DNA from: an uncultured Thiotrichaceae bacterium
GTDB lineage: Bacteria; Pseudomonadota; Gammaproteobacteria; SZUA-229
Length of the DNA: 64,000 bases
Direction of reading: 5' to 3'
Assembly (NCBI GenBank): GCA_964651445.1
Contig: CAZYYW010000001.1
Coordinates: 173 to 64,172 of the forward strand
The stretch's first letter is position 1. Each line of letters opens with the position of its first letter. The translations under genes were made by a program, and so were the position numbers. The notes below the pieces were generated by a model. It saw nothing but the letters and a program-made list of their open reading frames with translations. It searched no databases and was not told the origin of the DNA. Shown here piece after piece: positions 9,784 to 62,270 of the stretch.

Positions 9784-9784
9784 T

Positions 9785-16092: not shown

Positions 16093-16109
16093 TGCAAACC
16101 GTATGCCAA
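16093..16109 (-). promoter_or_regulatory. sigma54 (RpoN) promoter for the flgBCDEFGHIJKL operon; minus strand reads TTGGCATacggtTTGCA
   Basis: Minus-strand TGGCAT-N5-TTGCA with canonical GG-N10-GC spacing, about 50 nt upstream of the flgB start. Confidence 0.55.
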
Positions 16110-20266: not shown

Positions 20267-20283
20267 AAGCAACAACTGTGCCA
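20267..20283 (-). promoter_or_regulatory. sigma54 promoter driving the GGDEF-SPOR-flgA-flgM-flgN operon; minus strand reads TGGCACagttgTTGCT
   Basis: Minus-strand TGGCAC-N5-TTGCT with GG-N10-GC spacing, about 45 nt upstream of the GGDEF ATG. Confidence 0.55.
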
Positions 20284-20446
20284 GAACACCTCGTACAGTA
20301 ATAACAGTGGCTTAGCATAAAAAAATTTTATTAACGACAATTTTTTGACGCTAGACGGCAGGCTGTATTCTGCACAATGAAGCAATAGGCGGCAAAGTTT
20401 TGCCGCTATGTTAGAAACCCTTAGGATTGAGGGTGGATTAAATACA

Positions 20447-30072: not shown

Positions 30073-30123
30073 GACCCCTCACTTTTACGATTTGAAAATG
30101 GTATTTTGTATCGTTATACCTGT

Positions 30124-30139: not shown

Positions 30140-30266
30140 TTTGATTTTTATTATACATACTACTAAGATAATTCAAATACATTATTCGTTTTTCTTGACA
30201 ATATATGGCATTATTCGGTATAAATAGCGGATATAGAGCTGTTTTTCAGGATTAAAATAATAATAA

Positions 30267-38471: not shown

Positions 38472-38497
38472 TTAATCACTCTTTGTTATTATTCAGG

Positions 38498-42497: not shown

Positions 42498-44162
42498 CTA
42501 TATGCCTATCTGTTTGTGACTACAAACAATAGCCTCCAGACAATTCCCTGTGTTGTTTTCGAGAGTTAGTTCGTTAAGCTTGTAAGACAAGGAATATTCC
42601 TTGTCTTTTTTGTCATTGCTTTTCTCATCTAGTAGGCAATATGCCAAATCATTAAGATTTATTTCTTTGCCGCTATCCTCCATTTGAATGAGCAGAGAAG
42701 GAAAACCATTATGGCTAACCTTCTTTATTCCAATCTTTACGTAATGCATACTATTAGAGGTGTATTTTTCATGATTTTTTGTCCACGAACGTTCTACAAT
42801 AACGTTTTCATACAGCGCAGACATGATGTTAGCTAATGTCTTAGTTGTTAAATGCAAGCCTGAAATTTTTTGTATTTCATCAATAACGATAGGAACTGGA
42901 TTTAGTTCATGCAAGCTGCGCCCTCCTAGTTCCATGTACCAACACCAGTTACTGTTATACGATATTTTTTTATATTGATGGTTGTCAACTTCTTTACTGA
43001 GCATCAAACTATTTGTACAAGGTATACAAGCAAGCGTGACATCGTCAACTGGTTTTATATCACCACAAAAATCATTAAAACAAGCAACGATTTCCGTAAA
43101 AACAGACTTATCTTCAACAGTCTCATTCAAACAACTTTCTAATCTATTTTCACCAAACATATCATTATTTTTATTAAGGGCTTCAGTCAACCCATCTGTA
43201 AACAAAATTAATTGGTCACCAGGCGTAATATTGAATGATTCCATTCTATAGTTGTTTGACAATGTATCGATAATGCCAAGTGGTAAGTGTGAGGATTTTA
43301 TTTTATGTTTAATATTTCCATTACCAATACCTCTTAAGTAAATATCAGGCATGCCACCATTCCATATAGTCACTTGCTTAACATCACTTGAAATTCTTAA
43401 TACGCTGCATGCCAGAAACATACTGGTAGGTAAAAGAGACAGGAGTTTGCTGTTTATGCTCTCAAGAATGCAGGCCAGATCAAAGCCTTTTTCGGTCATT
43501 GCGCTAAATACATCGGCTACGGGTAACGCACCAATTGCTGCTGATAATCCATGGCCAGTAAAATCGGCTAGTAAGATATTCAGGCTACCGTCAGGATGGC
43601 GGGCTATTAAAAATAGATCACCACTAAAAATTTCTTTCGAGCTACTTAAAAAATGTATTTCATCGAAGTGGATGCATCTTTGACTTATCGCGTCTGATAA
43701 TATTCTCTTTGCGAGAATCTGCTCGTTTATTGAATTATTGTAGAGAACTGTTAATTCACCGATTTTGTCTAGCGATGATATTCTTGCGTTTATGGCAGCA
43801 GAAGTAACGGGTTTAAATAAAATATCATCTGAACCAGCGGTGGCACAAATGGCTAAGCGCTTACTGTCATCTGCTGAAGCAATGATAATGATAGGAATAT
43901 ATGATTCACCAATTTTGATTCGCAAGGAGCGGACAAGATCTTCACATTTAGCGTCATCAAAATCTACATCAATCAGTATATATGATATCTCCCACTCCTG
44001 TAGATAGCGAAAAACATGCTCTGCAGTACTTGCCCGCAAAGAGATGATACCTGAATGCTCTAGTGTGGTTTTAATACAAGCATTTATTTGTTGTGAACAG
44101 CTAACCACAAGCGCATATCTACATTCTTTTGTATCTTGATCATAGATAGGTAGAACATTCAA
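42498..44162 (-). CDS. HsbR-like protein: atypical receiver, PP2C (SpoIIE/RsbU) phosphatase, C-terminal GHKL kinase-like domain
   Basis: PP2C motifs GDLFLIARHPDG...LADFTGHGLSAA and FTDGLTEA; C-terminal N-box-like ALYENVIVERS and G1-like IQMEDSGKEI; N-terminal REC lacks the acidic pair (VVSCSQQ). Confidence 0.75.
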   Translation of the reverse strand: MNVLPIYDQDTKECRYALVVSCSQQINACIKTTLEHSGIISLRASTAEHVFRYLQEWEISYILIDVDFDDAKCEDLVRSLRIKIGESYIPIIIIASADDSKRLAICATAGSDDILFKPVTSAAINARISSLDKIGELTVLYNNSINEQILAKRILSDAISQRCIHFDEIHFLSSSKEIFSGDLFLIARHPDGSLNILLADFTGHGLSAAIGALPVADVFSAMTEKGFDLACILESINSKLLSLLPTSMFLACSVLRISSDVKQVTIWNGGMPDIYLRGIGNGNIKHKIKSSHLPLGIIDTLSNNYRMESFNITPGDQLILFTDGLTEALNKNNDMFGENRLESCLNETVEDKSVFTEIVACFNDFCGDIKPVDDVTLACIPCTNSLMLSKEVDNHQYKKISYNSNWCWYMELGGRSLHELNPVPIVIDEIQKISGLHLTTKTLANIMSALYENVIVERSWTKNHEKYTSNSMHYVKIGIKKVSHNGFPSLLIQMEDSGKEINLNDLAYCLLDEKSNDKKDKEYSLSYKLNELTLENNTGNCLEAIVCSHKQIGI

Positions 44163-44518
44163 TGCCCAACCCCGACTTTATCCCTCGTTTCAGTATTGAT
44201 TCCACAAGTATAATTGATGGTAAATAACTGCTCAAAATTAGCTACTTTCAAAATGGTATCAACTTGTTTGCTGGGGCGTTCTATAAATACTGCGCCACCA
44301 TGACACTTTGCATGCTCACGCAGCAACAGCAACATGCCCAATGCAGAACTGTCCATATAATTAGTATCGCTTAAATCAACGTAGTAGGACATGCTGTCTT
44401 GGCCTGTAATTCGACGATAGCTATCCCTGAATGCTTGGGACACTTTATAATCAAATCGTCCACTTATATTGATGTGTACTTTTTTTCCGTCGCTAGACAC
44501 TTCTTGACTTACAGACAT
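44159..44518 (-). CDS. STAS-domain anti-sigma-factor antagonist (HsbA/RsbV-like)
   Basis: 119 aa; STAS fold with conserved phospho-serine region DSSALGMLLLL; 4-nt overlap with the downstream gene. Confidence 0.8.
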   Translation of the reverse strand: MSVSQEVSSDGKKVHINISGRFDYKVSQAFRDSYRRITGQDSMSYYVDLSDTNYMDSSALGMLLLLREHAKCHGGAVFIERPSKQVDTILKVANFEQLFTINYTCGINTETRDKVGVGH

Positions 44519-44751
44519 AATACAGGCTCCCAGTTTCTTTTAGAAATAACACTACTACTGAAACTATCGACCATCTGTGGATAATGTTTAGTGGTTTTTA
44601 TAAAATCCAGGTTTTTAAATCATACTGCCGGACAATGTTGCTTTCGCAATATCAACAAAGCAGCTTCATTGCGACATCCGTTAGACGACAGTGAGATAGA
44701 TAAAGCCGTGCCATACTCGGCGTATCGAACTAACTCAAAGTAAGTAGGTAG

Positions 44752-46662
44752 TCAGGAGACCAATTTCAAAGCATCCGGCTGTTGATCAATTTTATTCATT
44801 TTCATTAATAAATCAAAAAAAGCTTCAGATGGAACAGGCTTACTAAAGAAATACCCCTGTATATATTCACATTGCTCTTTTATTAGAAAATCAAGCTGGC
44901 CTTTACTCTCAACGCCTTCAGACACAACCGACATTCCAAGGCTTTTTGCCAGTGCTAAAATGGCTTTAACAAGTCTCTCATCCTGTTTTGATACCAGTAC
45001 ATTATTAATGTAGCTGCGGTCGATTTTTATTGAATCAAAGTTATAACGTTGCAAATAAGAAAGTGATGCATAACCCGTACCAAAATCATCTATTAATAAT
45101 TTAATACCCATTATTTCAAGTAAGGCCATTGTCTCAAGACTGCTTTTTGTTTCTTTCATTAAAACGCCTTCTGTCAGTTCAAGCTGTATCGCATCAGAGT
45201 TTAGATCATTTGCCTTTAACGCCCGCTTCAGGGTCTTCACCAATGACGATTCCGCCTGAAACTGGCGCGCTGAAACATTGACGGTAATACATAGGTCATG
45301 CCAACCATAATCATGCCACTGCTTTATTTGCTCACAGGCTGTCTCAATTACCCATTCACCAATGGGGACAATTAAACCCGTTTCTTCTGCAATCGGTATA
45401 AAGTAATCGGGCGTTATCATGCCAAGATTTTCGCAGTTCCACCTTAATAGTGCCTCTGCTTTTACGATAACACCCGTTTTTGAGTCTATGATTGGTTGGT
45501 AATTCACAGTAAATTCATTCTTTTTCAGCGCATGTCGTAACTGTGTTTCAACATCCATGCGCATTTTTGCTTTCACTGTCATTTCTGGTGAGTAAAAACA
45601 GTAGGTATTTTTACCATCGTGCTTTGAGCGATACATGGCAATATCAGCGTGCCGCATTAGCTTGTTAATATCATCACCATCTTTTGGGTAAATAGCAAAA
45701 CCTATACTGGGTGAGATATTCAATTCCTGACCTTCAATAACGATAGGTTTTGAAAATATATCCAGTATACGCTCGCCAATTTGTCTAATGACATTTTCAC
45801 GCAACTGTCCATTGTCTGGTTTCTTATCATCCTCCAGTATCAGTAAAAACTCATCACCGCCTAAACGTGCAACGGTATCACTTTCACGCGCACATTCAGT
45901 TAATCTGCGTGCAGCTTCCCGAAGTAATTCATCTCCCACTGCATGACCAAAGGTATCATTGACATATTTAAAATTATCCAAATCCAAAAAAGCCAAACAG
46001 GGCTGTAAATTATTTCTTTTCGCCTTTGATAATGTCTGGTTTAATCGATCTGTTGCCAAACTTCGATTAGGAAGTTCGGTCAATTCATCGTAGTTCGCCT
46101 GTTTCTGTAATTGACCTTCAGCGAGCAATCTAATTTCGATTTCTTCCTTTAGCTTTCTATTGGTTACGTTTAACTCAGCAGTGCGCTGTTTAATTTGTTT
46201 TTCAAGACTATTTTGAGCCAAGCGAAGATACTCCGCCGCTTGTTTTTGCATTAGTTGATTACTTAACCGCGCCCATAGAACGTCAAAATCAACCGGTCGG
46301 GTAATGTAATCATTGGCACCAAAATCTAGCGCTTGAACAATTTCTGTTGAGGAACCACGAGATGTAATCAGTACAATCGGTAACTGCAATTTTGAGTATG
46401 TTTTACGAAGTGTTTTTAAAACAGCAATACCATCGAGACCTGGCATAGCGACATCCAGCAATACCAAATCTGGAGGACTATTGTAAACAATATCAATCGC
46501 CTCTTCACCATCTCTAGCTTCAGTCACCTGTATATTTCCCAGCTCAAGTATTTCTCTTATGGCCGAGCGGACGTCATTGCTGTCGTCAACAATGAGTACA
46601 TTTAATATTTTCCCCGATGAGATAACTTCCTGTATTTCAGGAACATAATCTATATCACTCAT
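44752..46662 (-). CDS. response regulator with REC-GGDEF-EAL domains (c-di-GMP phosphodiesterase/cyclase)
   Basis: REC (LVLLDVAMPGLDG); GGDEF with I-site RESD; EAL motifs EALLRW and DDFGTGYASL. Confidence 0.9.
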   Translation of the reverse strand: MSDIDYVPEIQEVISSGKILNVLIVDDSNDVRSAIREILELGNIQVTEARDGEEAIDIVYNSPPDLVLLDVAMPGLDGIAVLKTLRKTYSKLQLPIVLITSRGSSTEIVQALDFGANDYITRPVDFDVLWARLSNQLMQKQAAEYLRLAQNSLEKQIKQRTAELNVTNRKLKEEIEIRLLAEGQLQKQANYDELTELPNRSLATDRLNQTLSKAKRNNLQPCLAFLDLDNFKYVNDTFGHAVGDELLREAARRLTECARESDTVARLGGDEFLLILEDDKKPDNGQLRENVIRQIGERILDIFSKPIVIEGQELNISPSIGFAIYPKDGDDINKLMRHADIAMYRSKHDGKNTYCFYSPEMTVKAKMRMDVETQLRHALKKNEFTVNYQPIIDSKTGVIVKAEALLRWNCENLGMITPDYFIPIAEETGLIVPIGEWVIETACEQIKQWHDYGWHDLCITVNVSARQFQAESSLVKTLKRALKANDLNSDAIQLELTEGVLMKETKSSLETMALLEIMGIKLLIDDFGTGYASLSYLQRYNFDSIKIDRSYINNVLVSKQDERLVKAILALAKSLGMSVVSEGVESKGQLDFLIKEQCEYIQGYFFSKPVPSEAFFDLLMKMNKIDQQPDALKLVS

Positions 46663-47118
46663 TAGCCTATCCTCTTGAGGGTCAATCTTGCAAGTTGATC
46701 AATAATCATTAATGACACGTCTTTGACACTGGTCATCCCCTCGTTTTCTGCGTAGGTGAAATCTACGAATACCATTACTATAGTTTGATACATCACTGTG
46801 GTAAGCCAGTTAAAATGCTTTTAATGCCATTTTCGACAGTGCTTTTTCAGTGATTAACACCCTATTTTAAATCGCCATGTCGTATCTATCGGCTGATATA
46901 ACAATAACTTTACCCGTACTGCTGTGGTGACAAATTACCGACTATAAAAATAAAAAATGCAAACTTCATGCCAATTTTTAAATTTAAAAAAGAAAAATAA
47001 ATGTGACACTCAATAAGGCCTAGTTGAGAGCTAAAGAACAACCTTGTAGACAAAATTTATAGAAATGTATGACTTCAGATAAATGCTTGAATAGGCATTT
47101 CAAGGCTGTGCCAGCATT

Positions 47119-49522: not shown

Positions 49523-51967
49523 ATGCAAAACATCAACAATCGACCACATAAGAACAATATATTAATCGTCGATGACGATGCCACTATCCGCCTACTGATG
49601 AATGACGCATTAACAGATGACGCTTACAATATCACTGAGTCTGTCAATGGTTTTGATGCGTTAGCCTATATCGATAAAAATCACGTCGATCTTGTTCTTC
49701 TCGATGTCAATATGCCCGGTATGAATGGTTTTGAGGTGTGCACTCGTATCCGCCAATTACCCAATGGCGCTGACATTTCAATCGTAATGGTTACTGCACT
49801 TGAAGATGCCAGTTCCATTGCAAAATCTTATGATCTTGGTGCAACAGATTTTATTAGCAAGCCCATCAACTGGGATACCTTTCCTTATCGTATTCAATAC
49901 TTAATCAAAGCCAGAAACGCTATTGTAGAAGTAAAAAATCATAAGTCACACTTGGAATACATGGAGTTCATTTCCAGAATTATCACTCAAAATACAACCA
50001 AAGACAGCATTATGCAAGAGACCATGTTAGCAATGCTTGATATATTTTCAGCTGATCGCGCCGTGTTACTGCAGCCGAATAAAAATAAGACGGGGTCATA
50101 TACTGTCGATTTTGCAACCACTCGAAACTCCGTCAGTGGCAGCATGTTAACCACACTGGTAGCAGAACCTCTGGAAGATAACATCTTATATCGAGCTGAC
50201 CGTTCTGAATATCCGATATTTTCCAAATATAATATCGATAATCCTGCTCCAGATCAAAACAAAGCACTAAAGCAACAAATGATAACCAGCTTGAATTTAA
50301 AACAGGCGCAAAACTGGTACCTGATCATCCAGCAATACACAACCCAAGAAGACTGGACACCTCCGGAACATGAAACATTCTATAAGATTGGCTTGCGCAT
50401 AACCAACATGCTATCCCAACACTTATTGACTGAGGAACTTCGTCAAAGTGAAGAGCTACTTAAACAGTCACAAAAACTAGGTCACCTTGGAAACTGGCAT
50501 TGGAACCCGGTAACAAATAAACTGACATGGTCTGACGAAGTTTATAGAATATATAAATTAAAACGTGATAACCATGAGCCTGACTTTCAACAGTACTTCA
50601 AAATTAGCTTTGAAGAAGACACGACTCGTTTGGACCTAGTTAAGGAAATTCAAAACAAAACAAGCCATTCTTATCAAATAACCCATCGCATTCGAACAGC
50701 TGATAATGACATAAAATGGCTACACGAGCAGTGTCTAGGGGTTTACGAAAAATCAGGAGAACTAGTTGAAATTAGCGGCATTGTGCAAGATATAACCGAG
50801 TCTCACAATAAAAAAGAGCAGGAAGTACACGACAATAAAATGGATGCTATTGGACAATTGACCAGTGGCTTAGCCCATGATTTTGGTAATTTCATGACGG
50901 TTGCGCGAGGCAATCTCGAATTGCTGGAAGATATAATGCTCAATGAATACAAAGCTAAAAGCGATGATATGGAATTACTTGAGGATGCCTATTCAGCAGT
51001 AAATGACAGCGTGGAACTGATTAAACAACTGCTCGCCTTTTCACGTAAAAAGTCTATTTCTCCCGTTTACGTCAATGTTAAAGCGACCGTTGAAAAGTTT
51101 ACTAAATTATTTCAAAACACACTTGGCGACAGCATCAAGCTTTCAAGCAACATCGATAAAGATCTGTTTGATATTCTTGTTGATCCAACGCAATTTGAAA
51201 GTACACTGTTAAACATCATCATCAATGCACGCAACGCAATGCCTACTGGTGGCGAAGTTTCTATCAATGCTGAGATCCGAAAAACCGCACAATCACGTGA
51301 ACTTATCCGTAACGAAGATCACGATCTTGGTGACGAATGCATCTGTATATACATCAAGGATAATGGCAGTGGTATGAGTGAAGACGTTTTAAAACGCGCT
51401 ATAGAACCATTTTATACGACACAAACAAACCAGGGCACAGGTCTTGGGCTAAGCATGGTATATGGCTTTATAAAACAGTCTAAAGGCGAATTGATAATAC
51501 ATAGCCTACCGGATAAGGGTGCCACTATTTATATGCAATTCCCCATTTACCACGGCAAGGCTATTACAAACAAAGAAGAAATTGCAATCAACAAACTGCA
51601 ACATGCTAAAGCGATTATTCTTATCGTGGAGGATCGCCCTACCGTGAGGCAATTTGCCGTACGCTGTCTAAAGTACCCGGGCATTACCCTTTTAGAAGCA
51701 GACAATGCGCAGGCTGCACAGAAACTATTAAAATCCAAGAAGGTTGATTTGTTATTTACAGATATTTTAATGCCTGGAGAAATGGATGGACATGAGCTCG
51801 CCAACTGGGCAAATCAGAAATACCCGCAATTAAATATACTCTTAACCACCGCCATGGAAAATAAAACCAGTAACAAGATAGTTAGAAATCATCATTTTCA
51901 ACTACTGCCAAAACCTTATAGCAAAAGTGAACTGACAAATAGCATCTCTGGTTTTCTCGTCTCTTAA
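49523..51967 (+). CDS. hybrid histidine kinase: REC, GAF-like region, PAS, HisKA, HATPase, REC
   Basis: N-terminal REC (LVLLDVNMPGMNG); PAS (WHWNPVTNKLTWSDEVYRIY); H-box LTSGLAHDFGNFMTV; C-terminal REC (LLFTDILMPGEMDG). Confidence 0.85.
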   Translation: MQNINNRPHKNNILIVDDDATIRLLMNDALTDDAYNITESVNGFDALAYIDKNHVDLVLLDVNMPGMNGFEVCTRIRQLPNGADISIVMVTALEDASSIAKSYDLGATDFISKPINWDTFPYRIQYLIKARNAIVEVKNHKSHLEYMEFISRIITQNTTKDSIMQETMLAMLDIFSADRAVLLQPNKNKTGSYTVDFATTRNSVSGSMLTTLVAEPLEDNILYRADRSEYPIFSKYNIDNPAPDQNKALKQQMITSLNLKQAQNWYLIIQQYTTQEDWTPPEHETFYKIGLRITNMLSQHLLTEELRQSEELLKQSQKLGHLGNWHWNPVTNKLTWSDEVYRIYKLKRDNHEPDFQQYFKISFEEDTTRLDLVKEIQNKTSHSYQITHRIRTADNDIKWLHEQCLGVYEKSGELVEISGIVQDITESHNKKEQEVHDNKMDAIGQLTSGLAHDFGNFMTVARGNLELLEDIMLNEYKAKSDDMELLEDAYSAVNDSVELIKQLLAFSRKKSISPVYVNVKATVEKFTKLFQNTLGDSIKLSSNIDKDLFDILVDPTQFESTLLNIIINARNAMPTGGEVSINAEIRKTAQSRELIRNEDHDLGDECICIYIKDNGSGMSEDVLKRAIEPFYTTQTNQGTGLGLSMVYGFIKQSKGELIIHSLPDKGATIYMQFPIYHGKAITNKEEIAINKLQHAKAIILIVEDRPTVRQFAVRCLKYPGITLLEADNAQAAQKLLKSKKVDLLFTDILMPGEMDGHELANWANQKYPQLNILLTTAMENKTSNKIVRNHHFQLLPKPYSKSELTNSISGFLVS

Positions 51968-52211
51968 AAATGACCATTAGTAATGATCTCTTTTACAGCA
52001 GACTCACAACCACTTTATGTATATTACTTAAGTTGACAATTACATTACTTTACACAATAGACTTAATATAAAAGCCAAATTTTTGTCAGTTACACTATTA
52101 TAAACAATGTGAAATTGACACTAAATAGTAGGTAGCTGTAATGATGTTATTCAAAGTAGTAATTAATACCCTTCTGGATTCCCCTGTATCTCTACGAGTG
52201 GAGGTGAAATC

Positions 52212-53327
52212 ATGAACAACGCTGTACTACAAGACAACAGTATGCTGAATAATAAGCGACCTAAAGAATTGTTCCGAAGCTTGATCGGAAAAAGCCCGAC
52301 AATGCAGCGGGTACATAAAGACATACGGCAGGTGGCTAATAGCTCTGCCAATGTTTTAATTCTTGGCGAGTCAGGAACCGGAAAAGAAGTTGTCGCACGC
52401 AATATCCATTACTTTTCTGACCGTTGCAAAAATGCATTTGTGCCGGTTAACTGTGGCGCAATTCCTCACGAGTTATTGGAATCAGAGTTATTTGGTCACG
52501 AAAAAGGGGCTTTTACTGGTGCAATCACATCTCGTCCGGGGCGCTTTTCAATGGCGGAAGGTGGCACTCTATTTCTTGATGAAATAGGCGAGATGACTAT
52601 GGCAATGCAAGTGAAGCTGTTAAGAGTACTAGAAGAACGTGTGTTTGAACGTGTTGGCGGTACAAAAACTATTCATTCTAATGTCAGGATAATCGCTGCC
52701 ACTAATCGTAACCTTGAAGAAATGGTTAAACAGGGAAGCTTTCGTGAAGACCTCTATTTCAGATTAGATGTTTTCCCCATTCACTTACCGGTATTACGCG
52801 AGCGTATCGAAGACTTGCCATTGTTAATTAAAGAATTGGTTACTCGTCTTGAAACAACCAGTAATAACAGCGTTCGGTTCACTCAAAATGCGGTTGTAGG
52901 CATGTCCAAATATGATTGGCCTGGCAACGTGCGCGAACTAGCAAACCAGATCGAAAGAATGTCAATACAACACCCCAATGGCCTGGTTCATGAAAGTGAT
53001 TTACCCAACAGAATAAGAGCCAGTGCATCATCGACAAATAAAGGTTTACAGCCAGAGCAAATAGATGACTGCAACAGCCAACCACAATACAATCGACCTG
53101 TAGTTGTAGATGACGGACACTTTAATTTTCCAGTTGAAGGTTTTGATCTTAAGTCATACATTTCAAGCATCGAAGTGAAAATCATTCAAGATGCTCTTGA
53201 TGAGACGGGTGGTGTAGTCGCACATGCCGCAAAAACACTTGGCTTGCAGCGTACCACGCTTGCCGAAAAAATGCGAAAACATCATATCGACAAAAAGCCG
53301 GAAGCTTCTAGTCATAGTGTTTGTTAG
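52212..53327 (+). CDS. sigma54-dependent transcriptional activator of FleQ/FlrA type that lacks the N-terminal receiver-like domain (AAA+ plus Fis-type HTH only)
   Basis: Walker A GESGTGKE followed by VVARNIHY (FleQ-type post-Walker-A R-N); GAFTGA sigma54-contact motif; LFRS motif at the N-terminus; C-terminal HTH. Confidence 0.85.
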
Positions 53328-53398: not shown

Positions 53399-54352
53399 CT
53401 ACAGCGTGGCATCATCTACACCGACGCTATCTTGCTGAACAGTTACAGCCACTTCGCCTTGTTCTCCATCAATTTGTTTTTCCTCTGGATCATCAACGAT
53501 AATTTTGTTTGAATAATCCATCATAATTTCAACGCGGCGATTTTTAGCACGGCCGCTAAACGTTTCATTTGAAGCGATTGGCTGCGTATCGGCAAACGCG
53601 GATATTTCAAGTGTTTTATACCTTAACACCTCATCCTTCACTAGCTCATGTATGACACTGGCTGCTCGCGAAGATGATAATTCCCAGTTGGATCGAAAAC
53701 GATAAGTATTAATGGGAACATTATCCGTGTGACCGGCAACGATAACGACACCATCAAATTCACTAAAAACCTCACTAATTTTTGACACAACGACCTTGAA
53801 CGGCTCAATGACGTCAGCACTGCCTGAAGGAAACGAACCTTTCTCTCTGACTAAAAGGATAATTCTTTTTTCAGTAATTTTCATCTCGATCAAACCATGA
53901 CTAATTTCTTCCTCCAATGAAGCTTTCAATAGTTTACTGTCCCTGCGAATTCGTTCGATTATTTTTTTATCCTGCTCACTTAGTGTTGGTTTTGTCTCTT
54001 TACTCTCCTGCCCTTTTTCTGATGGGTCTGTAAACACAGGATGCCGCTTAGTTTCATCCGTTGTCATTTGTCGCACTTCATTAATCGGTGTTGGTTGTGG
54101 CCGCCCTGGACTAAACTCACGAGCAATAATATTAATGCCACGAGGTGATTCTTGTGCTTTGATTTCTCGCTGAACACCAAAGGCGTCTTTTAATGAACCA
54201 GCTAGTTCTTTATATATCGCAATATCCATTGAAGAAAAGGAAAACAGTAAGACAAAAAAAGCCAGTAACAATGACATCAAATCTGCAAATGTCATTACCC
54301 ATGCAGGTATACCGTCGGGACATTTATGCTCTTCTTCCAAAGCTTCACTCAT
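53399..54352 (-). CDS. motB: flagellar motor stator protein MotB/PomB family (OmpA-like C-terminus)
   Basis: N-terminal TM with conserved Asp (FADLMSLLLAFFVLL); OmpA-like peptidoglycan-binding C-terminal domain. Confidence 0.85.
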   Translation of the reverse strand: MSEALEEEHKCPDGIPAWVMTFADLMSLLLAFFVLLFSFSSMDIAIYKELAGSLKDAFGVQREIKAQESPRGINIIAREFSPGRPQPTPINEVRQMTTDETKRHPVFTDPSEKGQESKETKPTLSEQDKKIIERIRRDSKLLKASLEEEISHGLIEMKITEKRIILLVREKGSFPSGSADVIEPFKVVVSKISEVFSEFDGVVIVAGHTDNVPINTYRFRSNWELSSSRAASVIHELVKDEVLRYKTLEISAFADTQPIASNETFSGRAKNRRVEIMMDYSNKIIVDDPEEKQIDGEQGEVAVTVQQDSVGVDDATL

Positions 54353-54363: not shown

Positions 54364-55146
54364 TTAGGCGGCCGCTTTCTTGGCTTTAGCTTTTCCATTT
54401 TTTTCTGGCGGTAAATAAACACTCAGCAAACCTTCTATCATACGAGGATTCAAACCTTCCTGAATCGCGCTAATACTCTCCAAAATCATTGATTTGCTGG
54501 TACGTTCTTGTTTACTTCGCAATGCCAGTTTATCGGCAATAGGCAACGCAAAAACGGTCGCAATGACTGCACCATATAGAGTAGTCAGTAATGCAATCGC
54601 CATTGCAGGGCCAATAGATTTAGGATCGCTCATATTGGACATCATTTGCACCAGACCGATCAAGGTACCTATCATGCCCATTGCCGGCGCCACATCACCC
54701 ATTGCCTTAAAGATGTTCAAGCCAGCTTCATTACGTTCAATAGACATGGTGATTTCTTTAGAAAGGATTTTATTGACCAACTCAGGTGGGTTGCCATCAA
54801 CCACCATCGTTATGCCCTTGGCAAGAAACTCATTTTTGACTTCAACATTTTCCAGGCCGAGCAAGCCTTCCTTCCGGGCAACATTTGCTAGTTCCAAGCT
54901 CTGCTCAATAATTTCACTCGGAAGCTGAGCCTTATGAACAAAGGCTTTAAGAGCCACGCCAAAAGCACCGAGCATATCAGGCAGTGAAAACTTCATGGTA
55001 ACAATTGCAAACGTGCCGGCTATAACAATCAAGATACTCGGCCCATTGACAAACATGCCCATTTCACCGCCCATCATAATGGCTGCAATAATACAGCCTA
55101 TGGCAGTCAAAATACCGATAAGTGTTGCTAAATCCATACCTTTCAC
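54364..55146 (-). CDS. motA: flagellar motor stator protein MotA/PomA family
   Basis: 260 aa, 4 TM, MotA/TolQ/ExbB channel family; upstream of motB. Confidence 0.85.
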   Translation of the reverse strand: MKGMDLATLIGILTAIGCIIAAIMMGGEMGMFVNGPSILIVIAGTFAIVTMKFSLPDMLGAFGVALKAFVHKAQLPSEIIEQSLELANVARKEGLLGLENVEVKNEFLAKGITMVVDGNPPELVNKILSKEITMSIERNEAGLNIFKAMGDVAPAMGMIGTLIGLVQMMSNMSDPKSIGPAMAIALLTTLYGAVIATVFALPIADKLALRSKQERTSKSMILESISAIQEGLNPRMIEGLLSVYLPPEKNGKAKAKKAAA

Positions 55147-55445
55147 CTTGCTTATTGCACAATTTCGAATTTAAAATACACGCATGTTTTGCTTGCGCTG
55201 TCACATCCGGTTTCTTCTACTCTATTTAATCGGTCGCCACCGCAGAAGCTTTAGTAGAAATTTGATATGAATCCGCTTGAAACAAAGGATTTTAGTAATC
55301 GGTATCTCTACGGATGACAAGTCATTTGTAAACTTTTGTAAACATACAATAAACAAAGACTTATTTACTATACAGTCGATAAAATATTTGATATAAAGAA
55401 GCCGCTATATCTGCATTACAGCAAGTTAATTGCGCCATTTTTGAT

Positions 55446-56177
55446 TTGACTTTATTAAAGGAAATTATGAATAGTACTAAAATTTTGTTTATTGATGACG
55501 ACCAACGAATATGTCGCCTGGTTAAAAGATACCTGCAAAACAATCATATCGAGATGATTGCTGCCCACAATGCCAGAGATGCACTCAATCTCCTGCACGA
55601 CGACAGTATCACCTTAATACTGCTCGATATTATGCTACCGGATATGGACGGTCTTACGCTTGCACAAAAAATCCGTTTATCATCTGAAATACCCATAATT
55701 TTCCTCACCGCCAAAGCCGAGATCGAAAACAAAGTCATCGGGCTAGAAATTGGAGCCGACGATTACATTACCAAACCGTTTGAAGAAAAAGAACTGATTG
55801 CCCGAATACAAGCAGTGTTGCGCCGCACCCAAAATACAACAACTCATGACAACGACAAAACCAAGGCAAATTTTGCCGGTTGGTGCCTCAATTTACTTAG
55901 TCATACACTGCATTCGCCCGATGGCACAGTTGTAGACATCACCAGCACTGAGTATCGTCTGCTGACCAAGCTGGTCAACCGCTCAAATCGAATCATCAAA
56001 CGCGAAGAAATTTTACACATACTTTCTAACCGTGAATGGTCACCGCTGGATCGATCCGCAGATATGGCGATATCCAAATTACGCAAAAAAATCGAAAAAA
56101 ATCCACGCAGACCGGAAATCATCAAAACCATTCGCAACCACGGCTACCAGCTCACCGCTGCTGTGAACTTCAACTAG
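55446..56177 (+). CDS. OmpR/PhoB-family response regulator (REC plus winged-helix); orphan, divergent from motA
   Basis: REC (ILLDIMLPDMDG); C-terminal winged helix (IIKTIRNHGYQL). Confidence 0.85.
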   Translation: MTLLKEIMNSTKILFIDDDQRICRLVKRYLQNNHIEMIAAHNARDALNLLHDDSITLILLDIMLPDMDGLTLAQKIRLSSEIPIIFLTAKAEIENKVIGLEIGADDYITKPFEEKELIARIQAVLRRTQNTTTHDNDKTKANFAGWCLNLLSHTLHSPDGTVVDITSTEYRLLTKLVNRSNRIIKREEILHILSNREWSPLDRSADMAISKLRKKIEKNPRRPEIIKTIRNHGYQLTAAVNFN

Positions 56178-56246: not shown

Positions 56247-57059
56247 TTATGTGTGACATATTTCTAGATGATTAGCACTGCGTTTCGCTGAAAAACGATG
56301 TGTTAACTGCTTTTCTCGCCAAATAAAACCAGATGCTTTTGGCACTGTATAACGCACCTCAAAGACATCAATATCATCGCAGCTATTTGCGCTGTAATTC
56401 ATCTGTAGCCTTGCCTGTTTCATAATGTGGATGTACTCATTGTCCGTTTCGATGGTATAAGACTGCAATACAGCGTTTTTATAATTATTACTCTGGGTAA
56501 ACATCCACAAATATTCAATAATCATTTTAACCTTATCGGCCGTTAATTCTGTCATGGTTATTCTGCCACGGTAATGCCCATCTTCATCATTGCGATCGAC
56601 ACCTGTTCGATCCAATACACTGGCTTTAAAAACGCGATGCATATTTATAAATTCAGGTAATGAGGGGTCGAATCGTGAGAACTGGAAATACAACAATGTC
56701 TCTTTATTAGCAGACAATTGCTGATACGAAACCTGGTGCTCTGCCGCTTTTTCAGACCAAGACATGGCTTCAATAAAATCATCACTGGCAAGATCATATG
56801 CTGTCATACCTGCTCTGGCAGAGACGGGTAACAGGCTAGTGTTTTTTACATGGCTAATCGAATAGAAAATATCTTGGTAATTGTTTTCTTTATAAAAATC
56901 ATCAGGAACTCGTTTATCAAAATACAACGCTCTGGCAGTGGCAAGATCTCCAGTCAAAGGCGCACTATTTTTATTGGTCACCGCAGTATCTTCTGAGCTG
57001 CTACAACCCGATAACAACTGTACGGCTATGACAAGCAATATTAGCCCGCTATATTGCAT
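56247..57059 (-). CDS. hypothetical lipoprotein (likely start MQYSG at 57059)
   Basis: Lipobox LLSGCSSS after a hydrophobic h-region. Confidence 0.5.
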   Translation of the reverse strand: MQYSGLILLVIAVQLLSGCSSSEDTAVTNKNSAPLTGDLATARALYFDKRVPDDFYKENNYQDIFYSISHVKNTSLLPVSARAGMTAYDLASDDFIEAMSWSEKAAEHQVSYQQLSANKETLLYFQFSRFDPSLPEFINMHRVFKASVLDRTGVDRNDEDGHYRGRITMTELTADKVKMIIEYLWMFTQSNNYKNAVLQSYTIETDNEYIHIMKQARLQMNYSANSCDDIDVFEVRYTVPKASGFIWREKQLTHRFSAKRSANHLEICHT

Positions 57060-57290
57060 GAACTGGAAGCGACCATTGGCCTCATCGTTACACATCAACA
57101 GGGGTTTACACATCGAGAGGGCTTTAATTATCATGCCGTATTTTTAATCTATTGAGTTTCATCACCCAATATATCGACGCGACACTATTTATCTTTAACC
57201 GCAGCACGACCATTCGTCGGAATGATAAATGGTCGTGCTGCGTTAATTAATTAACGCCAAGAGTATTTCTATTAGAGCTGCCTACAGCAA

Positions 57291-58130
57291 TTAGACAAGA
57301 AGGGATTGTCGCGCTTTTTCATACAATTGTTGATTTTCTTTAATTTGCAAAAGATTAACATCTGAATCCATGCCTAATCTAGAAAATGCGGGGACTAGGC
57401 ACCAATCATCAGGCGAATGCTCCTCAGCAACATAACCACCTTGTAATAATGCGACCTGTACTAAGTTAACCAGATTTGTGCCATCTTTCTGTTCATAGTC
57501 AAAGTTATGGCTTTCCTCGACCACTTCAATTAAATCATTGGAAAAGTTCCAACTGCGTAACATCAAAGCACCTATGCGACCTTGCAATGCATGGACAACG
57601 GATTTTAATTCTTTGGCGTCATTAAATAGCGCTTTATCATTGCCGGCAATAGCCAGCAAAGGCAAGGCACCAATGTTATGGATAAGACCAGCCAACAAGG
57701 CTTGTTCTCTGCGGATGCCACACATTGATGCCGTCATCATTTGGCAAATGGCTGCCACATTGACCGAAACACTCCATGTTTTCCTGAACTGTTTATCCAT
57801 AACCGGGGATGTTGGCTTAAAGATTTGTTTCATCGCAAGATTGGTAATTAAGTCCCTTACCATTTTCCCGCCGAGCCGAGTAACGGCTCTTTGCAAATCC
57901 TCAATAGGCACTTCACCGCGGTATAATGGGCTATTAACCACCTTCAGTAACCTTACCGATAAAGCTGCATCTTGGCTCAGGATATCAGCAATCTGTTCAG
58001 TTGTTGTCTCTTCGTGATCAACAGCTTCTCTTATTTTCAACGCGACTTCTGGCAGTGACGGTAGTATTATCCGATCTTCATTAATGGCTAGCTCTAGCTT
58101 ATTATAAAAGTCTTCATGTTCGACGCTCAT
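57291..58130 (-). CDS. HDOD-domain protein (paralog 1)
   Basis: LPSLPEVALKIREAV...LLKVVNSPLY; HNIGALPLL. Confidence 0.8.
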   Translation of the reverse strand: MSVEHEDFYNKLELAINEDRIILPSLPEVALKIREAVDHEETTTEQIADILSQDAALSVRLLKVVNSPLYRGEVPIEDLQRAVTRLGGKMVRDLITNLAMKQIFKPTSPVMDKQFRKTWSVSVNVAAICQMMTASMCGIRREQALLAGLIHNIGALPLLAIAGNDKALFNDAKELKSVVHALQGRIGALMLRSWNFSNDLIEVVEESHNFDYEQKDGTNLVNLVQVALLQGGYVAEEHSPDDWCLVPAFSRLGMDSDVNLLQIKENQQLYEKARQSLLV

Positions 58131-58258
58131 TTTAACTACTTATCCATCACATATTTTATGTTAAATAATACTGCTATTGATTGTATCGGCAGGTAAAAGC
58201 TATTATTTATTATAGCTTTATTATTTCAGGGTGAAGAAATTGGACGTTTCTTCTTTTA

Positions 58259-59101
58259 TCAAATCATCAACGATTGCCTGGCATCATTGAGCAGTTCCTC
58301 ATTTTCTTCTATATGAATAACATCTACTTCTGCATTCATGCCCAATTTTTCAAATGCTGGAATTGTAGACCAATCCTCCGGACACAGATCATTGGAGATA
58401 AAGCCACCCTGTAGCAAGGTAAACTGAACCAGATCAACCATATTCGCGCTGCCTTCATGCTCATATTTAAAGTTATGGCATTGGCTTACAACTTCAATCA
58501 ACTCGTCTGAAAAGTGCCAGTTTTCTAATATAATAGCGCCAACACGACCTTGTAATTCCTGAATAAGCTGATCCATCGCTTGCTGATCATGAAACAAATA
58601 ATCATCTTCCTCAGCCATCAATAGTATGGGTAATAAACCAATGTTATGCAGTAAACCTGCCAGTAAGGCCTGTTCTTTTTTAACGCCGACTTCCATCGTT
58701 GCCGCCATCATTTGACAGATGGCCGCTATGTCGACAGACGTTTTCCATGCCGATCTGAACTGTTTTTCCATCATCACGGATGTCGGTTGATACATTTGTT
58801 TCATGGAAAGATTGGTTACCAAGTCGCGCACCAAACTGCTGCCCATACGGGTAACAGCCATGTGTAAATCCTCAATCGGCATTCGGGTTCTATACAGAGG
58901 GCTGTTCACTATCTTCAATAAACGTGCAGACAGTGCACCATCCTGACTAAGAATGTCAGCAATTTGCCCACTTGTGGTGTCTTCTCTTTCAGCGACATCG
59001 CGTATTTTTAACGCCACATCAGGTAAAGAGGGTAATTCAATTCTATCTTCTTCGACGGCTTCTTGTAGCTTACTAAAAAACTGCTCAACGTCTGTACTCA
59101 T
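58259..59101 (-). CDS. HDOD-domain protein (paralog 2; likely start MSTDVEQFF at 59101, 9 nt after an AGGA RBS)
   Basis: LPSLPDVALKIRDVA...LLKIVNSPLY; HNIGLLPIL; collinear with paralog 1. Confidence 0.8.
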   Translation of the reverse strand: MSTDVEQFFSKLQEAVEEDRIELPSLPDVALKIRDVAEREDTTSGQIADILSQDGALSARLLKIVNSPLYRTRMPIEDLHMAVTRMGSSLVRDLVTNLSMKQMYQPTSVMMEKQFRSAWKTSVDIAAICQMMAATMEVGVKKEQALLAGLLHNIGLLPILLMAEEDDYLFHDQQAMDQLIQELQGRVGAIILENWHFSDELIEVVSQCHNFKYEHEGSANMVDLVQFTLLQGGFISNDLCPEDWSTIPAFEKLGMNAEVDVIHIEENEELLNDARQSLMI

Positions 59102-59217
59102 AACGGTTCTATCCTGTTTTGTTTTCTCATAAACTTGCCAAGCTATTGAAAGATACAAGTCGTTAATTAATCGACAGCATTTATATTTTCTTTAACAATA
59201 TTATTTTCTCGGTTTAA

Positions 59218-59973
59218 TCACGCAGTGATCTCTTGTTCAGTCCACTCGGTCATTCGTGCGCGAAGACGTAATAGAGCCTGGCCGTGTATCTGACAAACCC
59301 TCCCTTCGGTAATCCCCAGAATCTCACCTATTTCACGCAAGTTGAACTCCTCGTCGTAATACAGTGCCATTACCATTTTCTCTCGTTCAGGCAAATGCTC
59401 TATTTTATTAACCAGTCCTTGTTTAAAATCTGCTTCCTGTAATTCCTTTAGAGGGTTATTAAAGTCACAGCTTTTATATTCATCCGCACAGCCTCCAGCA
59501 GAGGCTATATCTTCGTAGCTTAATAATTGGCAGCCGGCGGCATCCTTTACCATACGATAATATTCTTCGATGCCAAGTTGCATATGTTCGGCAATTTCAC
59601 TGTCTGTAGCATGGCGGCCATGTTCACTTTCAATTTGTCGAATGGCTTCTGATAGCTCTCTTGATTTTTTATAAACAGAGCGTGGCGTCCAATCGCAACG
59701 CCGTACTTCATCAATCATTGAACCTTGAATTCGAATCCGAGCATAGGTTTCAAAACTTGCACCTTTACTCATATCATAGCCTTTTAAGGCTTCAAATAAC
59801 CCAATCATGCCAGTTTGCACGATGTCTTCCAATTGTATGCTAGAAGGTAATCGCGTAATCATATGGTAGGCAATACGTTTAACAAATGGTGCATATTCCG
59901 TCATCAATTCATCATAATTCGGTGCATCACCTGAGATAGAACCAACTTCAGCGTAACTGGACATCGATGCCAT
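59218..59973 (-). CDS. fliA: flagellar sigma factor FliA (sigma28)
   Basis: Sigma70 regions 2-4; stop overlaps the flhG start. Confidence 0.9.
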   Translation of the reverse strand: MASMSSYAEVGSISGDAPNYDELMTEYAPFVKRIAYHMITRLPSSIQLEDIVQTGMIGLFEALKGYDMSKGASFETYARIRIQGSMIDEVRRCDWTPRSVYKKSRELSEAIRQIESEHGRHATDSEIAEHMQLGIEEYYRMVKDAAGCQLLSYEDIASAGGCADEYKSCDFNNPLKELQEADFKQGLVNKIEHLPEREKMVMALYYDEEFNLREIGEILGITEGRVCQIHGQALLRLRARMTEWTEQEITA

Positions 59974-60884
59974 TAGCTGACCTCCTGAGACACCATTGAA
60001 AATTGAGATTTGTCAGCTTGAATCATACGTTCCATAAAAAATTTCATTTGTCCATCAGATCGTGTGCGTTCAGGCCAGCTATCAATTTGCCGAGTAATTC
60101 GTTTAAACGCCAATGCTGAGGGCGAGTGAGGAAAGGCATCAACCACCGCTCTTTGGTGTTGAATGGCTTTACGCAACTTTCCATCAAACGGTACTGCGCC
60201 AACAAATTCCAACACCACATCTAAAAAACGGTCGGTCGCTTTTGACAACTTATTGAATAGTTCACGGCCTTCACGCGCATCATGTGTCATGTTCGCCAAA
60301 ATATGAAATTTACCAACGTTCAGTTTTCGACTCATGACTTTTATGAAAGCGTAAGCATCTGTAATAGAAGCAGGTTCATCATGCACCACAACAATGATTT
60401 CCTGCGATGCGCCACAAATATTGATAACAGTGTCAGCAATGCCAGCACCGGTATCGATAATCATGACGTCAACGGCAAAACTTAAATCACTAAAAGCATT
60501 AATTAACCCCATCTGTTGTGCAGGGTCTAAATTAGCCATATCACTTATTCCGGTTGATGCTGGAATAACTTTTATATTTGATGGTCCGTTAACAATGATT
60601 TCTTCCAGAGTACGTTCGCCACGCATTACGTGAGACAAGTCGTATTCTGTATTTAAACCGAGCAAAACATCAACGTTCGCTAATCCCATATCAGCATCCA
60701 TTAACAAAACTTCTTTGCCTTGTTTCGCCATCGACAGCGCAAGATTAACCGATACATTGGTTTTACCTACACCCCCTTTACCGCTACTTATAGCGATTAT
60801 TTTTACCGGGCGAGGTGCAACAACACGGCGTAAACTTTCTGCCTGATCCAGATTGCGTCGCATTGACACTTTAGATGTTTCCAT
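59973..60884 (-). CDS. flhG: MinD-like ATPase FlhG/FleN (flagellar number regulator)
   Basis: Deviant Walker A SGKGGVGKTN; between flhF and fliA. Confidence 0.9.
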   Translation of the reverse strand: METSKVSMRRNLDQAESLRRVVAPRPVKIIAISSGKGGVGKTNVSVNLALSMAKQGKEVLLMDADMGLANVDVLLGLNTEYDLSHVMRGERTLEEIIVNGPSNIKVIPASTGISDMANLDPAQQMGLINAFSDLSFAVDVMIIDTGAGIADTVINICGASQEIIVVVHDEPASITDAYAFIKVMSRKLNVGKFHILANMTHDAREGRELFNKLSKATDRFLDVVLEFVGAVPFDGKLRKAIQHQRAVVDAFPHSPSALAFKRITRQIDSWPERTRSDGQMKFFMERMIQADKSQFSMVSQEVS

Positions 60885-62154
60885 TATTATTTACCCCACC
60901 AAAGCTATAGGCCAACTCTTCGTCTGACACTGAATTTTTTAAACATCGCATTAACTTTACAGCCTCTTTTACCAGCAACTTACCGCGTGCACGATGCAAA
61001 TCATCCGGTACTTTCTGACCGTCACAAACAAAGGCTACCGGAAGATCATGCTGAATAAGAACTGAAATTATTTCACCGAGGCTGGCTGTTTCATCTATTT
61101 TTGTAATGACACAACCCTCAAGGTTTTCTTTGCCAAAGCTGTTAACCACATCATCCAGTAAATTCATTTGCCCTGTTGCTGATAATACCAGGTAATTTTT
61201 TATATCCATATCTGGGTAATGTTTAGTGGTTATCAAATCATTTAAGTTAAGACCTTTCTGACTGAGTCCAGCGGTATCTATCAGTGTTAGGTTATGCTCT
61301 CCAGATTTTTTTTGAACTTCGTTTAACAAGTTTTCAAGTTCTTCTGCATCGCTTGCAACGTGAACAGGTATACCCAGAATACGACCATAACTACGCAGTT
61401 GTTCATGCGCACCAATACGGTAGTTATCAGTGGTGATTAATGTCACACCGCGACGACCGTGTTTTAATGCAAACCGGGCAGCAAGTTTAGCGATGGTTGT
61501 CGTTTTACCAACACCTGTCGGACCTATCAGGGAAACTATGCCACCATTGGATATAATATCCTGATCACTAATCGGCACCAAATAAGAAAGATAGTTTAAA
61601 GATTCCAACCAACTATTTTTACTCAAACCCTTTTTTTCAAGCTTACTGGCAATGCCTCGGCTTAACCCGGGACTAATACCCAACGTTATCAACTGTTTTA
61701 ATAAGTTGGCATACAAGGGTTGCACACGGCTTGTTTCGCTCCAGGAAAATTGCATCAGCGGTGCTTCCATGATGTTTCTTAAACTGGCCAATTCATCTTG
61801 AATTTTATCCAGCGTTGTTGTACTAGAATTTGTTGACGACTCGAAGTTTGTATTCTCTACTAGACTATCGAATGAAGATTTTTGATTTGTTGATGTGTCC
61901 ACTTTCATATTGTCAGGGCTGGCAACCGCGTTACTCTGCTGTACACTATTTCGATACGGATCTATTTCGCTAAGGGTATCGGGATTGCCAAGAGATGTCT
62001 GTACCATTGCATCTTCATAATCCATCGCAGCAATAATTTCTACACCACCATTAACTTGCCGGTTAGATAAAATTACCGCATCTGAGCCCTGCTCCTCGCG
62101 CAGTGCACGCATTGCCTGACGTGAATCCGGTGCAAAATAACGTTTCATTTTCAT
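60871..62154 (-). CDS. flhF: SRP-type GTPase FlhF (flagellar placement); likely start MKMKRYF at 62154
   Basis: G-domain GPTGVGKTTT, DTAG, TKID. Confidence 0.85.
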   Translation of the reverse strand: MKMKRYFAPDSRQAMRALREEQGSDAVILSNRQVNGGVEIIAAMDYEDAMVQTSLGNPDTLSEIDPYRNSVQQSNAVASPDNMKVDTSTNQKSSFDSLVENTNFESSTNSSTTTLDKIQDELASLRNIMEAPLMQFSWSETSRVQPLYANLLKQLITLGISPGLSRGIASKLEKKGLSKNSWLESLNYLSYLVPISDQDIISNGGIVSLIGPTGVGKTTTIAKLAARFALKHGRRGVTLITTDNYRIGAHEQLRSYGRILGIPVHVASDAEELENLLNEVQKKSGEHNLTLIDTAGLSQKGLNLNDLITTKHYPDMDIKNYLVLSATGQMNLLDDVVNSFGKENLEGCVITKIDETASLGEIISVLIQHDLPVAFVCDGQKVPDDLHRARGKLLVKEAVKLMRCLKNSVSDEELAYSFGGVNNNGNI

Positions 62155-62270
62155 ACCGCGCTCCATTGAACAATTGCAGTTATGTAGCCCACTGCCCAAA
62201 AGGCACACACCAAAAACAGCAAACTATTTTTTTTGATATTGTTATACATGTCATTCATTATTATCTCCTG

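Follow-up and report, generated by a model that had tools for sequence, protein, structure and literature searches.

Closest described systems

FleQ is the textbook transcription factor linking cyclic diguanosine monophosphate (c-di-GMP) to the decision whether to move or to form a biofilm. In Pseudomonas aeruginosa (PDB 5EXX, 8P53, 8PB9 and 7EJW) the protein carries an N-terminal FleQ/REC-like domain of about 135 residues, a pseudo-receiver that dimerizes (PMC10723142) and to which structural models assign an essential part in oligomerization and in holding FleN. Here we describe a FleQ-type sigma-54 activator of 371 residues that is without this domain, encoded at positions 52212..53327 (+) of a 64,000-nucleotide stretch of contig CAZYYW010000001.1 from an uncultured Thiotrichaceae bacterium; the whole of this stretch is referred to as the window, and the protein as the short FleQ. 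On balance we favor the reading that it is a minimal FleQ, the pseudo-receiver having been lost in an ancestor and the trans inputs that act on the AAA+ domain having been retained.

The short FleQ shares with P. aeruginosa FleQ the cis c-di-GMP contacts, the ATPase core, the GAFTGA loop, most of the FleN-contact residues and the genetic linkage to flhF-fleN-fliA. Its gene, however, is found next to motAB, at the opposite end of the flagellar cluster, whereas P. aeruginosa fleQ lies upstream of fleS-fleR. FlrA/FlaK of Vibrio (PDB 26JL; here also FlrA of Photobacterium, L008) belongs to the same family, possesses the same triad of motifs (LFRS, RN and ExxxR in L008) and likewise accompanies a polar flagellum with a PomA-type stator, FlhF/FlhG and FliA. 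Unlike the short FleQ, with which it has about 54% identity, FlrA carries the FleQ-N domain (485 residues in total in L008).

Activators consisting of a AAA+ domain and a helix-turn-helix (HTH) domain without a cis regulatory domain are represented by PspF of Escherichia coli and HrpR/HrpS of Pseudomonas syringae, which resemble the short FleQ in architecture but differ in lineage. Having no cis domain, these proteins must be controlled by a partner in trans (PspA and HrpV), and by analogy with PspF and PspA trans control is likely to apply to the short FleQ as well, through FleN and c-di-GMP. Domain loss is common among enhancer-binding proteins (PspF, HrpR/HrpS, FleT and FlgR, which has no DNA-binding domain), so the short FleQ is not categorically new. 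FleT of Cereibacter (Rhodobacter) sphaeroides is not known to have a DNA-binding domain and forms hetero-oligomers with FleQ, whereas the short FleQ has a complete FleQ-like HTH. Like the short FleQ, FleT is a truncated sigma-54 activator, and it works within a flagellar hierarchy (PMC7277832). The literature that we searched for a natural FleQ lineage without a REC domain, or for the role of the N-terminal domain, is incomplete in coverage and yielded no description of such a lineage.

Gene and domain organization

The open reading frame (ORF) of the short fleQ gene is complete, begins with ATG and is preceded by a ribosome-binding site (RBS; GGAGGTG, 52200-52206). Pfam assigns residues 24-191 to Sigma54_activat (PF00158, E 1.8e-74), residues 196-277 to AAA_lid_14 and residues 319-357 (53166..53282, +) to the Fis-type HTH_8 (PF02954, E 2.6e-12), the recognition region of which resembles RTTLVEKMRK of FleQ. 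The ORF, start codon, RBS and domains all agree with the initial annotation of a 371-residue sigma-54 activator at this position. That annotation had also placed the start about 30 residues before the AAA+ domain; the lead is indeed short, but slightly shorter than stated, the AAA+ domain beginning at residue 24. An AlphaFold2 model built with 48 clade sequences (see below) has a confident AAA+ core, a folded HTH, a low-confidence linker at residues 288-314 and predicted local distance difference test values below 50 for residues 1-19. According to this model, the N-terminal tail of 19-23 residues is disordered.

The short FleQ has the complete set of features by which bacterial enhancer-binding proteins are recognized, namely Walker A, Walker B, arginine fingers, the sigma-54-contacting GAFTGA loop (residues 99-104; 52506..52523, +) and a C-terminal Fis-type HTH, and is the only protein in the window with a GAFTGA motif. 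Neither PF06490 (FleQ) nor PF00072 (REC) was matched in the Pfam search of the protein, and for want of PF06490 it is a variant derived from the FleQ/FlrA family and not a canonical member. The gap between the upstream gene, which ends at 51967, and the short fleQ gene measures exactly 244 bp (51968..52211, +) and contains nine stop codons in the frame of the short fleQ gene; its coding capacity for a FleQ-N domain is nil, in line with the earlier statement that it is too short to hold one. For a hidden Markov model (HMM) we took the N-terminal domain of each of eleven full-length FleQ proteins; it was run on all six-frame ORFs of the window and gave only weak generic REC matches, the best being an OmpR-type regulator with E 1e-3. 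These matches being marginal, no separate FleQ-N domain is encoded in the window, and a split gene was rejected.

The homolog set comprised at least 120 protein clusters (of which the best 120 were analyzed) with 66-100% identity to the short FleQ, drawn from NCBI, JGI, ENA and Logan assemblies, and since these homologs are of like short length a chance ORF was rejected. It is scarcely conceivable that the domain went missing through a wrong start, a frameshift in a pseudogene or a break in the assembly: nothing was found in favor of this, and it is contradicted by the in-frame stops, the strong RBS and the recurrence of the short form in more than 120 independent assemblies from the same four sources, some of the contigs being 0.1-1.5 Mb long.

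Relationship to FleQ

When compared with all PDB sequences, the short FleQ matched P. aeruginosa FleQ best (E 4e-124, 417 bits), residues 15-363 aligning to residues 139-486 of the FleQ chain, that is, from the linker that joins REC to AAA+ through the DNA-binding domain. The AAA+ domain is 63% identical to that of P. aeruginosa FleQ and the HTH about 53%. Other families scored far lower (NifA 270, ZraR 258, NtrC1 240, FlrC 222 and PspF 199 bits). A fold search with the AlphaFold2 model returned FleQ AAA+ structures as all 11 of its best matches (60-64% identity), and FleQ entries comprising the AAA+ domain only had template-modeling scores of 0.84-0.88 against the model.

With its AAA+ plus HTH architecture and no N-terminal domain, the protein could be taken for a generic constitutive activator of the PspF/HrpS kind that has no flagellar or c-di-GMP role and matches the FleQ motifs by coincidence, and NCBIfam placed it in no family above cut-off (TIGR02974 pspF, 295 bits vs a cut-off of 443). 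This is nevertheless very improbable, being contradicted by the bit scores for FleQ and PspF, by nesting of the protein within the FleQ clade, by conserved flagellar synteny and by the motif comparison given below. The grouping with PspF/HrpS-type activators that the initial annotation had named as evidence against its proposal is thus not seen, and the proposal itself, a protein of the FleQ/FlrA type with c-di-GMP-binding signatures but no receiver-like domain, is borne out by the Pfam search, the PDB match, the tree and the alignment to FleQ/FlrA, in which FleQ is the best match and the c-di-GMP motifs are aligned. Protein databases name clade members either "FlrA" or, generically, "sigma-54-dependent Fis family regulator".

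A monophyletic clade of short FleQ proteins

All of the best 120 clusters are 311-402 residues long and none contains PF06490. The tails that precede the LFRS motif in this clade are variable, ranging from 4 to 51 residues with a median of 18.5. Members come from uncultured marine Gammaproteobacteria, with one metagenome-assembled genome labeled Thiotrichaceae. Among the matches listed from named genomes, FleQ relatives of 50-58% identity are 480-510 residues long with 105-165 additional N-terminal residues, and the full-length relatives include proteins of Pseudomonas, Photobacterium, Rheinheimera, Stenotrophomonas and Cellvibrionaceae.

In a neighbor-joining tree based on 301 AAA+ and HTH columns, the short clade is monophyletic (100/100 bootstraps) and its sister is P0130 (98/100), a full-length protein of 501 residues with 61% identity. 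Pfam detected PF06490 in P0130 and P0133, and neither PF06490 nor PF00072 in P0038, P0104 and P0231. A monophyletic short clade with a full-length FleQ as sister indicates, as the simplest reading of the sequences, one loss of the N-terminal domain in the ancestor of the clade. A search of representatives clustered at 50% identity lists no representative of the short clade, the members of which apparently stand under the longer P0130, and the size of the clade is not measurable there.

Other short FleQ-like proteins exist outside this clade, branching either basally to the full-length FleQ-type activators or between them (P0192, P0210, P0232, P0254, P0257, P0272 and P0274; L015 and L016). They too are without the N-terminal domain and have a FleQ-like HTH (RRTTLVEK); the seven named proteins are 329-378 residues long and other short representatives reach about 420 residues. 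They differ from the clade in that the c-di-GMP triad is absent, with RQ, RR, RA, RS and other pairs in place of RN and no LFRS. P0231 is an isolated exception with LFRA, RN and ELNAR.

c-di-GMP contact residues

In P. aeruginosa FleQ, c-di-GMP is contacted by LFR144S, by R185/N186 after Walker A and by E330xxxR334 (PMC9303241, PMC10333796), as well as by R138 in cis and R151 in trans (PMC10723142). Residue n of the short FleQ corresponds to native FleQ residue n+122, and PDB chain numbering is the native number plus 2. At the positions of R138, L142, F143, R144, S145, R185, N186, E330 and R334 the short FleQ has the same residue throughout. R16 (nt 52257-52259) corresponds to R138, and L20 F21 R22 S23 (52269..52280, +) aligns with LFR144S. 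Walker A (GESGTGK, residues 52-58, from 52365) is followed by EVVA and then R63-N64, the counterpart of R185/N186 (52365..52403, +, with R-N at 52398). Both the LFRS in ELFRSLIG and the R-N pair, pointed out in the initial annotation, are therefore present, at nt 52269 and 52398. The alignment adds a third motif that was not mentioned there, E208-L-V-T-R212 (52833..52847, +), corresponding to E330xxxR334.

Among 58 non-FleQ activators from genomes, RA was the commonest pair after Walker A (21 proteins) and QA, NA, HA or KA occurred in most of the others, so that the view that generic activators have RA holds as a tendency. None of the 58 has RN, and in the alignment column read-out no non-FleQ activator has LFRS or the full LFRS/RN/ExxxR triad. 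To our knowledge the corresponding pair of PspF is not RN either. Every one of the 122 sequences of the short clade has R63 and R212, whereas N64 is found in 116 and E208 in 117. The LFRS motif is more variable, being exact in 82 sequences and LFRC in 14, with the motif arginine retained in 101 and replaced by lysine in 17 (LLKS, LFKS and others).

These sequence features make the short FleQ a candidate c-di-GMP-binding protein, and it is plausible, as proposed earlier, that it is a c-di-GMP-responsive class I regulator of the flagellar genes here. When the window was scanned for Rfam families and tRNAs, there were no matches and hence no c-di-GMP riboswitch.

ATPase core and possible FleN partnership

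The residues required of an active ATPase are intact (K58, E59, D123, E124, R138, R178 and R241). FleN binds the isolated AAA+ domain of FleQ, and the crystal structure of FleN with this domain lists ten FleQ residues as FleN contacts (PMC8528422), of which seven are identical and two more conservatively replaced in the short FleQ. The FlhG protein encoded in the window (flhG/fleN, 59973-60884, -, 6.6 kb from the short fleQ gene) is an ortholog of P. aeruginosa FleN (E 1.4e-94) and retains the C-terminal tail G-x-M-K-F-F-M-E-R-M. In P. aeruginosa this tail inserts into FleQ (PMC8528422). The short FleQ is predicted from this conservation to be sensitive to FleN.

Genomic context

The window holds, as judged from its gene content, much of a polar-type flagellar system. 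Flagellar genes occupy 0.5-16 kb (fliT, fliS, flaG, fliD, flagellin and flgL through flgB), 16.4-18.1 kb (flgN, flgM and flgA) and 53.4-64 kb (motB, pomA, fliA, flhG, flhF and flhA). The short fleQ gene adjoins motB-pomA, with fliA-flhG-flhF-flhA 6-10 kb away. Both stator genes are convergent with it, motB at 53399-54352 (-) and pomA/motA at 54364-55146 (-), the latter with a sigma-28-like site upstream; they are followed by an OmpR-type response regulator (55446..56177, +), which is also a neighbor of the stator genes in relatives. Beyond these lie fliA (59218-59973, -), flhG, flhF (60871-62208, -) and flhA (from 62271, -), which runs past the end of the window.

The local order, a HisKA-HATPase-REC-Hpt kinase (-), a REC-PAS-kinase-REC protein (+), short fleQ (+), in some cases a PilZ-domain gene, motB and motA (-) and an OmpR-type regulator, recurs in L084, L085, L086, L088 and L089, spanning guanine-cytosine (GC) contents from 38% to 56%, and gene order linking short fleQ with flagellar genes is also shared by L081/82. 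On the 1.55-Mb contig of L089, the short fleQ gene closes a cluster running from fliI to flhA-flhF-flhG-fliA and on to motAB. The conserved arrangement suggests that in most of the clade short fleQ is a chromosomal gene stably linked to the flagellar cluster. A PilZ-domain gene stands between short fleQ and motB in several relatives (L084 11273-11863, L085 11199-11816 and L089 20010-20609); the window has no PilZ gene at this position, only 71 bp separating the two genes.

The immediate upstream neighbor encodes a hybrid histidine kinase of 814 residues with the Pfam architecture REC-PAS_3-HisKA-HATPase_c-REC (49523..51967, +), and a kinase of this architecture, with 814-822 residues, is encoded on the same strand immediately upstream of short fleQ in 6/9 distinct loci across the same GC range. 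The receiver might accordingly be supplied in trans, either by a REC domain of this kinase docking on the AAA+ domain or by a phosphorelay replacing the cis domain. We regard this as improbable: synteny does not amount to interaction, the REC domains of the kinase are not specially FleQ-N-like (E 0.034 against the home-made HMM) and the kinase is missing from that position in L081/82, L083 and L087. FleQ-N, moreover, is not a phosphorylation-dependent switch (PMC10723142).

Promoters and predicted regulation

The intergenic DNA of the window contains four sigma-54 -24/-12 elements, each with no more than one mismatch and oriented with the downstream gene. The only perfect one is TGGCACAGTTGTTGC (20269..20283, -), the 5' end of which is 54 nt upstream of a GGDEF gene, the first in a GGDEF-SPOR-flgA-flgM-flgN operon. 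A second, TGGCATACGGTTTGC (16094..16108, -), has its 5' end 65 nt upstream of flgB in the flgBCDEFGHIJKL block. These are the promoters that the initial annotation had indicated at 20.3 and 16.1 kb. The other two precede fliS (1424-1438) and a REC-GGDEF-EAL gene (46959-46973). Located 52 nt upstream of the perfect element is a palindrome, GTCAAAAAATTGTC (20336..20349, -), with two mismatches to GTCANTAAATTGAC, which we take to be the FleQ-box consensus; four sites with at most two mismatches were found in the 64 kb, in a post hoc and weak test. In the 244-bp gap upstream of short fleQ no sigma-54 or sigma-28 consensus was seen in a reading by eye, the regular-expression scans having covered other intergenic regions. 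The lack of such sites would fit an early place in the hierarchy, short of proof.

The favored minimal FleQ would act as follows. Its HTH would bind FleQ-type sites, an ATP-hydrolyzing oligomer would form without phosphorylation input and so be constitutively competent, and the GAFTGA loop would open the sigma-54 promoters of the polar-flagellum regulon. c-di-GMP, held by R16, LFR22S, R63/N64 and E208xxxR212, would turn the activator down in trans, and the MinD-like antiactivator FlhG/FleN, encoded 6.6 kb away, would dock through its C-terminal tail and restrain it. The sigma-54-driven GGDEF gene heading the flgA-flgM-flgN operon could close a negative feedback via c-di-GMP. We infer these target promoters, the rank of the short FleQ in the hierarchy and the feedback loop.

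A more far-reaching version of this proposal, which we put forward only tentatively, is that the REC-less FleQ is the sole FleQ-type master regulator of the polar flagellum across a widespread uncultured clade, the pseudo-receiver being dispensable and control being exerted only via c-di-GMP and FlhG on the AAA+ domain. If so, a domain deemed required in Pseudomonas would be dispensable in nature, the sigma-54-driven diguanylate cyclase would provide built-in negative feedback and the upstream hybrid kinase might replace the lost domain in trans.

Several observations weigh against the minimal FleQ and its proposed rank. In P. aeruginosa the REC-like domain is reportedly needed for FleQ activity and, in cells, for a stable FleN complex (PMC10723142, citing Su et al. 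2015), and because of this requirement a REC-less FleQ may behave or oligomerize differently, or may rely on a partner, for which the hybrid kinase encoded next to it would be a candidate. The trans contact R151 is replaced by Pro29 in the short FleQ and is the sole c-di-GMP contact that differs. A subclade with LLKS or LFKS (P0038, P0043, P0047, P0089 and others) keeps R63, R212 and the motAB neighborhood (L086 10001-11116; L088 10001-11098). c-di-GMP sensing may be altered or lost in these proteins, and with lysine in place of the R144 equivalent in a motAB-linked subclade it would not be universal in the clade. Two further clade members (P0058 and P0040, of a KLFRSLVG subclade) are encoded in non-flagellar neighborhoods (L083 10001-11098; L087 10001-11107). 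FleQ-box sites are not enriched in the window, where 38 matches were found vs 29 expected at up to three mismatches. In a close relative (L091, positions 1-2180), a partial fleS-like gene and a 448-residue REC-sigma54-HTH protein of the FleR/FlrC type, fleR, lie directly upstream of fliE-fliF-...-flhA, and the contig stops at the place where canonical fleQ should lie; FliI of this contig is 85% identical to that of L089 and the gene order is identical. The short FleQ may consequently be neither the only flagellar activator nor the top one. The class I rank is uncertain because fleS/fleR in L091, with a second sigma-54 activator, implies more than one activator and because a full-length FleQ may be encoded elsewhere in the genome, the usual place of canonical fleQ, upstream of fleS, being beyond the end of that contig. 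It is uncertain also because the flgB promoter at 16.1 kb, put forward as a target in the initial annotation, is presumably FleR-dependent and not FleQ-dependent, judging from the Pseudomonas hierarchy.

As to the settings of the two non-flagellar loci, the neighbors of one are nosR, cytochrome cd1 and hemerythrin genes, and the other is placed between dnaE and surE-pcm-nlpD-rpoS.

The same observations bear on the main rival reading, in which the short FleQ is an accessory paralog beside a canonical FleQ, specialized for stator, c-di-GMP-enzyme or surface/biofilm genes, or serving as the subunit of a mixed oligomer. FleT with FleQ in C. sphaeroides and HrpS with HrpR are models for such oligomers. 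Hetero-oligomeric flagellar activators are known (PMC7277832), the L091 contig with its order fleS(partial)-fleR-fliE...flhA breaks off exactly at the expected fleQ position, the two clade members L083 and L087 are away from flagellar genes and one sigma-54 element (46959-46973) precedes a REC-GGDEF-EAL gene, all of which fit an accessory role. We nevertheless think this reading unlikely. A single full-length FleQ is sister to the entire short clade, and no FleQ relatives nearer to the lineage than the short proteins were found; on the 1.55-Mb contig the gene forms part of the main polar cluster, at its end; and a complete FleQ-like DNA-binding domain is kept, unlike in FleT.

The conserved lineage of short FleQ proteins offers a natural system in which to ask what the pseudo-receiver is for and how c-di-GMP and FleN control a AAA+ ring without it. 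For annotation, the REC-less FleQ subfamily and its subclade without the motif arginine should be separated in sequence-based prediction of c-di-GMP receptors.

Other genes of the window

The surroundings of short fleQ are dense in genes related to c-di-GMP, the window containing four that encode GGDEF or GGDEF-EAL proteins and three that encode HDOD proteins. The GGDEF protein behind the perfect sigma-54 element has 310 residues and an intact RNGGDEF motif (19297-20229, -), placing an apparently active diguanylate cyclase within a flagellar operon (19297-20283). The other three genes encode a hybrid kinase-GGDEF-EAL protein (22179-26030), a GGDEF protein (39880-41586) and the REC-GGDEF-EAL protein (44752-46662). 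Two of the HDOD genes lie downstream of short fleQ, at 57291-58130 and 58259-59158.

Sites resembling those of sigma-28 (FliA), with the pattern TAAAG-N14-16-G(C/T)CGAT(A/T), precede pomA, flagellin and flaG and are also present 5' of these two HDOD genes, a 295-residue ORF, the REC-GGDEF-EAL gene and a STAS gene; regions with such sites were noted at 44519-47118, 55147-55445, 57135-57290, 58131-58258 and 59159-59217. From their distribution, late flagellar control may take in c-di-GMP and partner-switching genes as well. The partner-switching set itself (41589-44518, -) comprises a REC-SpoIIE phosphatase, a STAS protein and a REC-HATPase_c_2 protein (anti-sigma-like kinase), and similar sets are found near short fleQ in L081 and L084.

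Between the two flagellar blocks lies a plasmid-type partition module (26913-31379), with the region 37434-39598 also concerned. It includes a RepA/SopA-type ParA (28891-30072), which matches the ParA proteins of more than 5000 plasmids at about 41% identity, a ParB (27912-28871) and another gene of the ParB/Noc-like type (26913-27722). A tyrosine integrase gene and a Fic/DUF4172 gene accompany it. Such gene content points to a chromid, to a plasmid or to an element that has integrated. The flagellar cluster of relatives is found on contigs of up to 1.55 Mb.

A 507-residue protein combining TPR and sulfotransferase domains is encoded between the flagellin gene and flgL (4910-6433, -) and may modify flagellin or the filament. 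FlgJ (9343-9816, -) has 157 residues and matches the N-terminal rod-binding part only, the muramidase domain being absent. Four ORFs had no Pfam or NCBIfam match, encoding 455 residues (34170-35537, +), 370 residues (30267-31379, +, in the partition module), 296 residues (31908-32798, -) and 295 residues (56247-57134, -). A counterpart of the last, of 280-282 residues, is conserved beside the OmpR-type regulator in L081 and L086.

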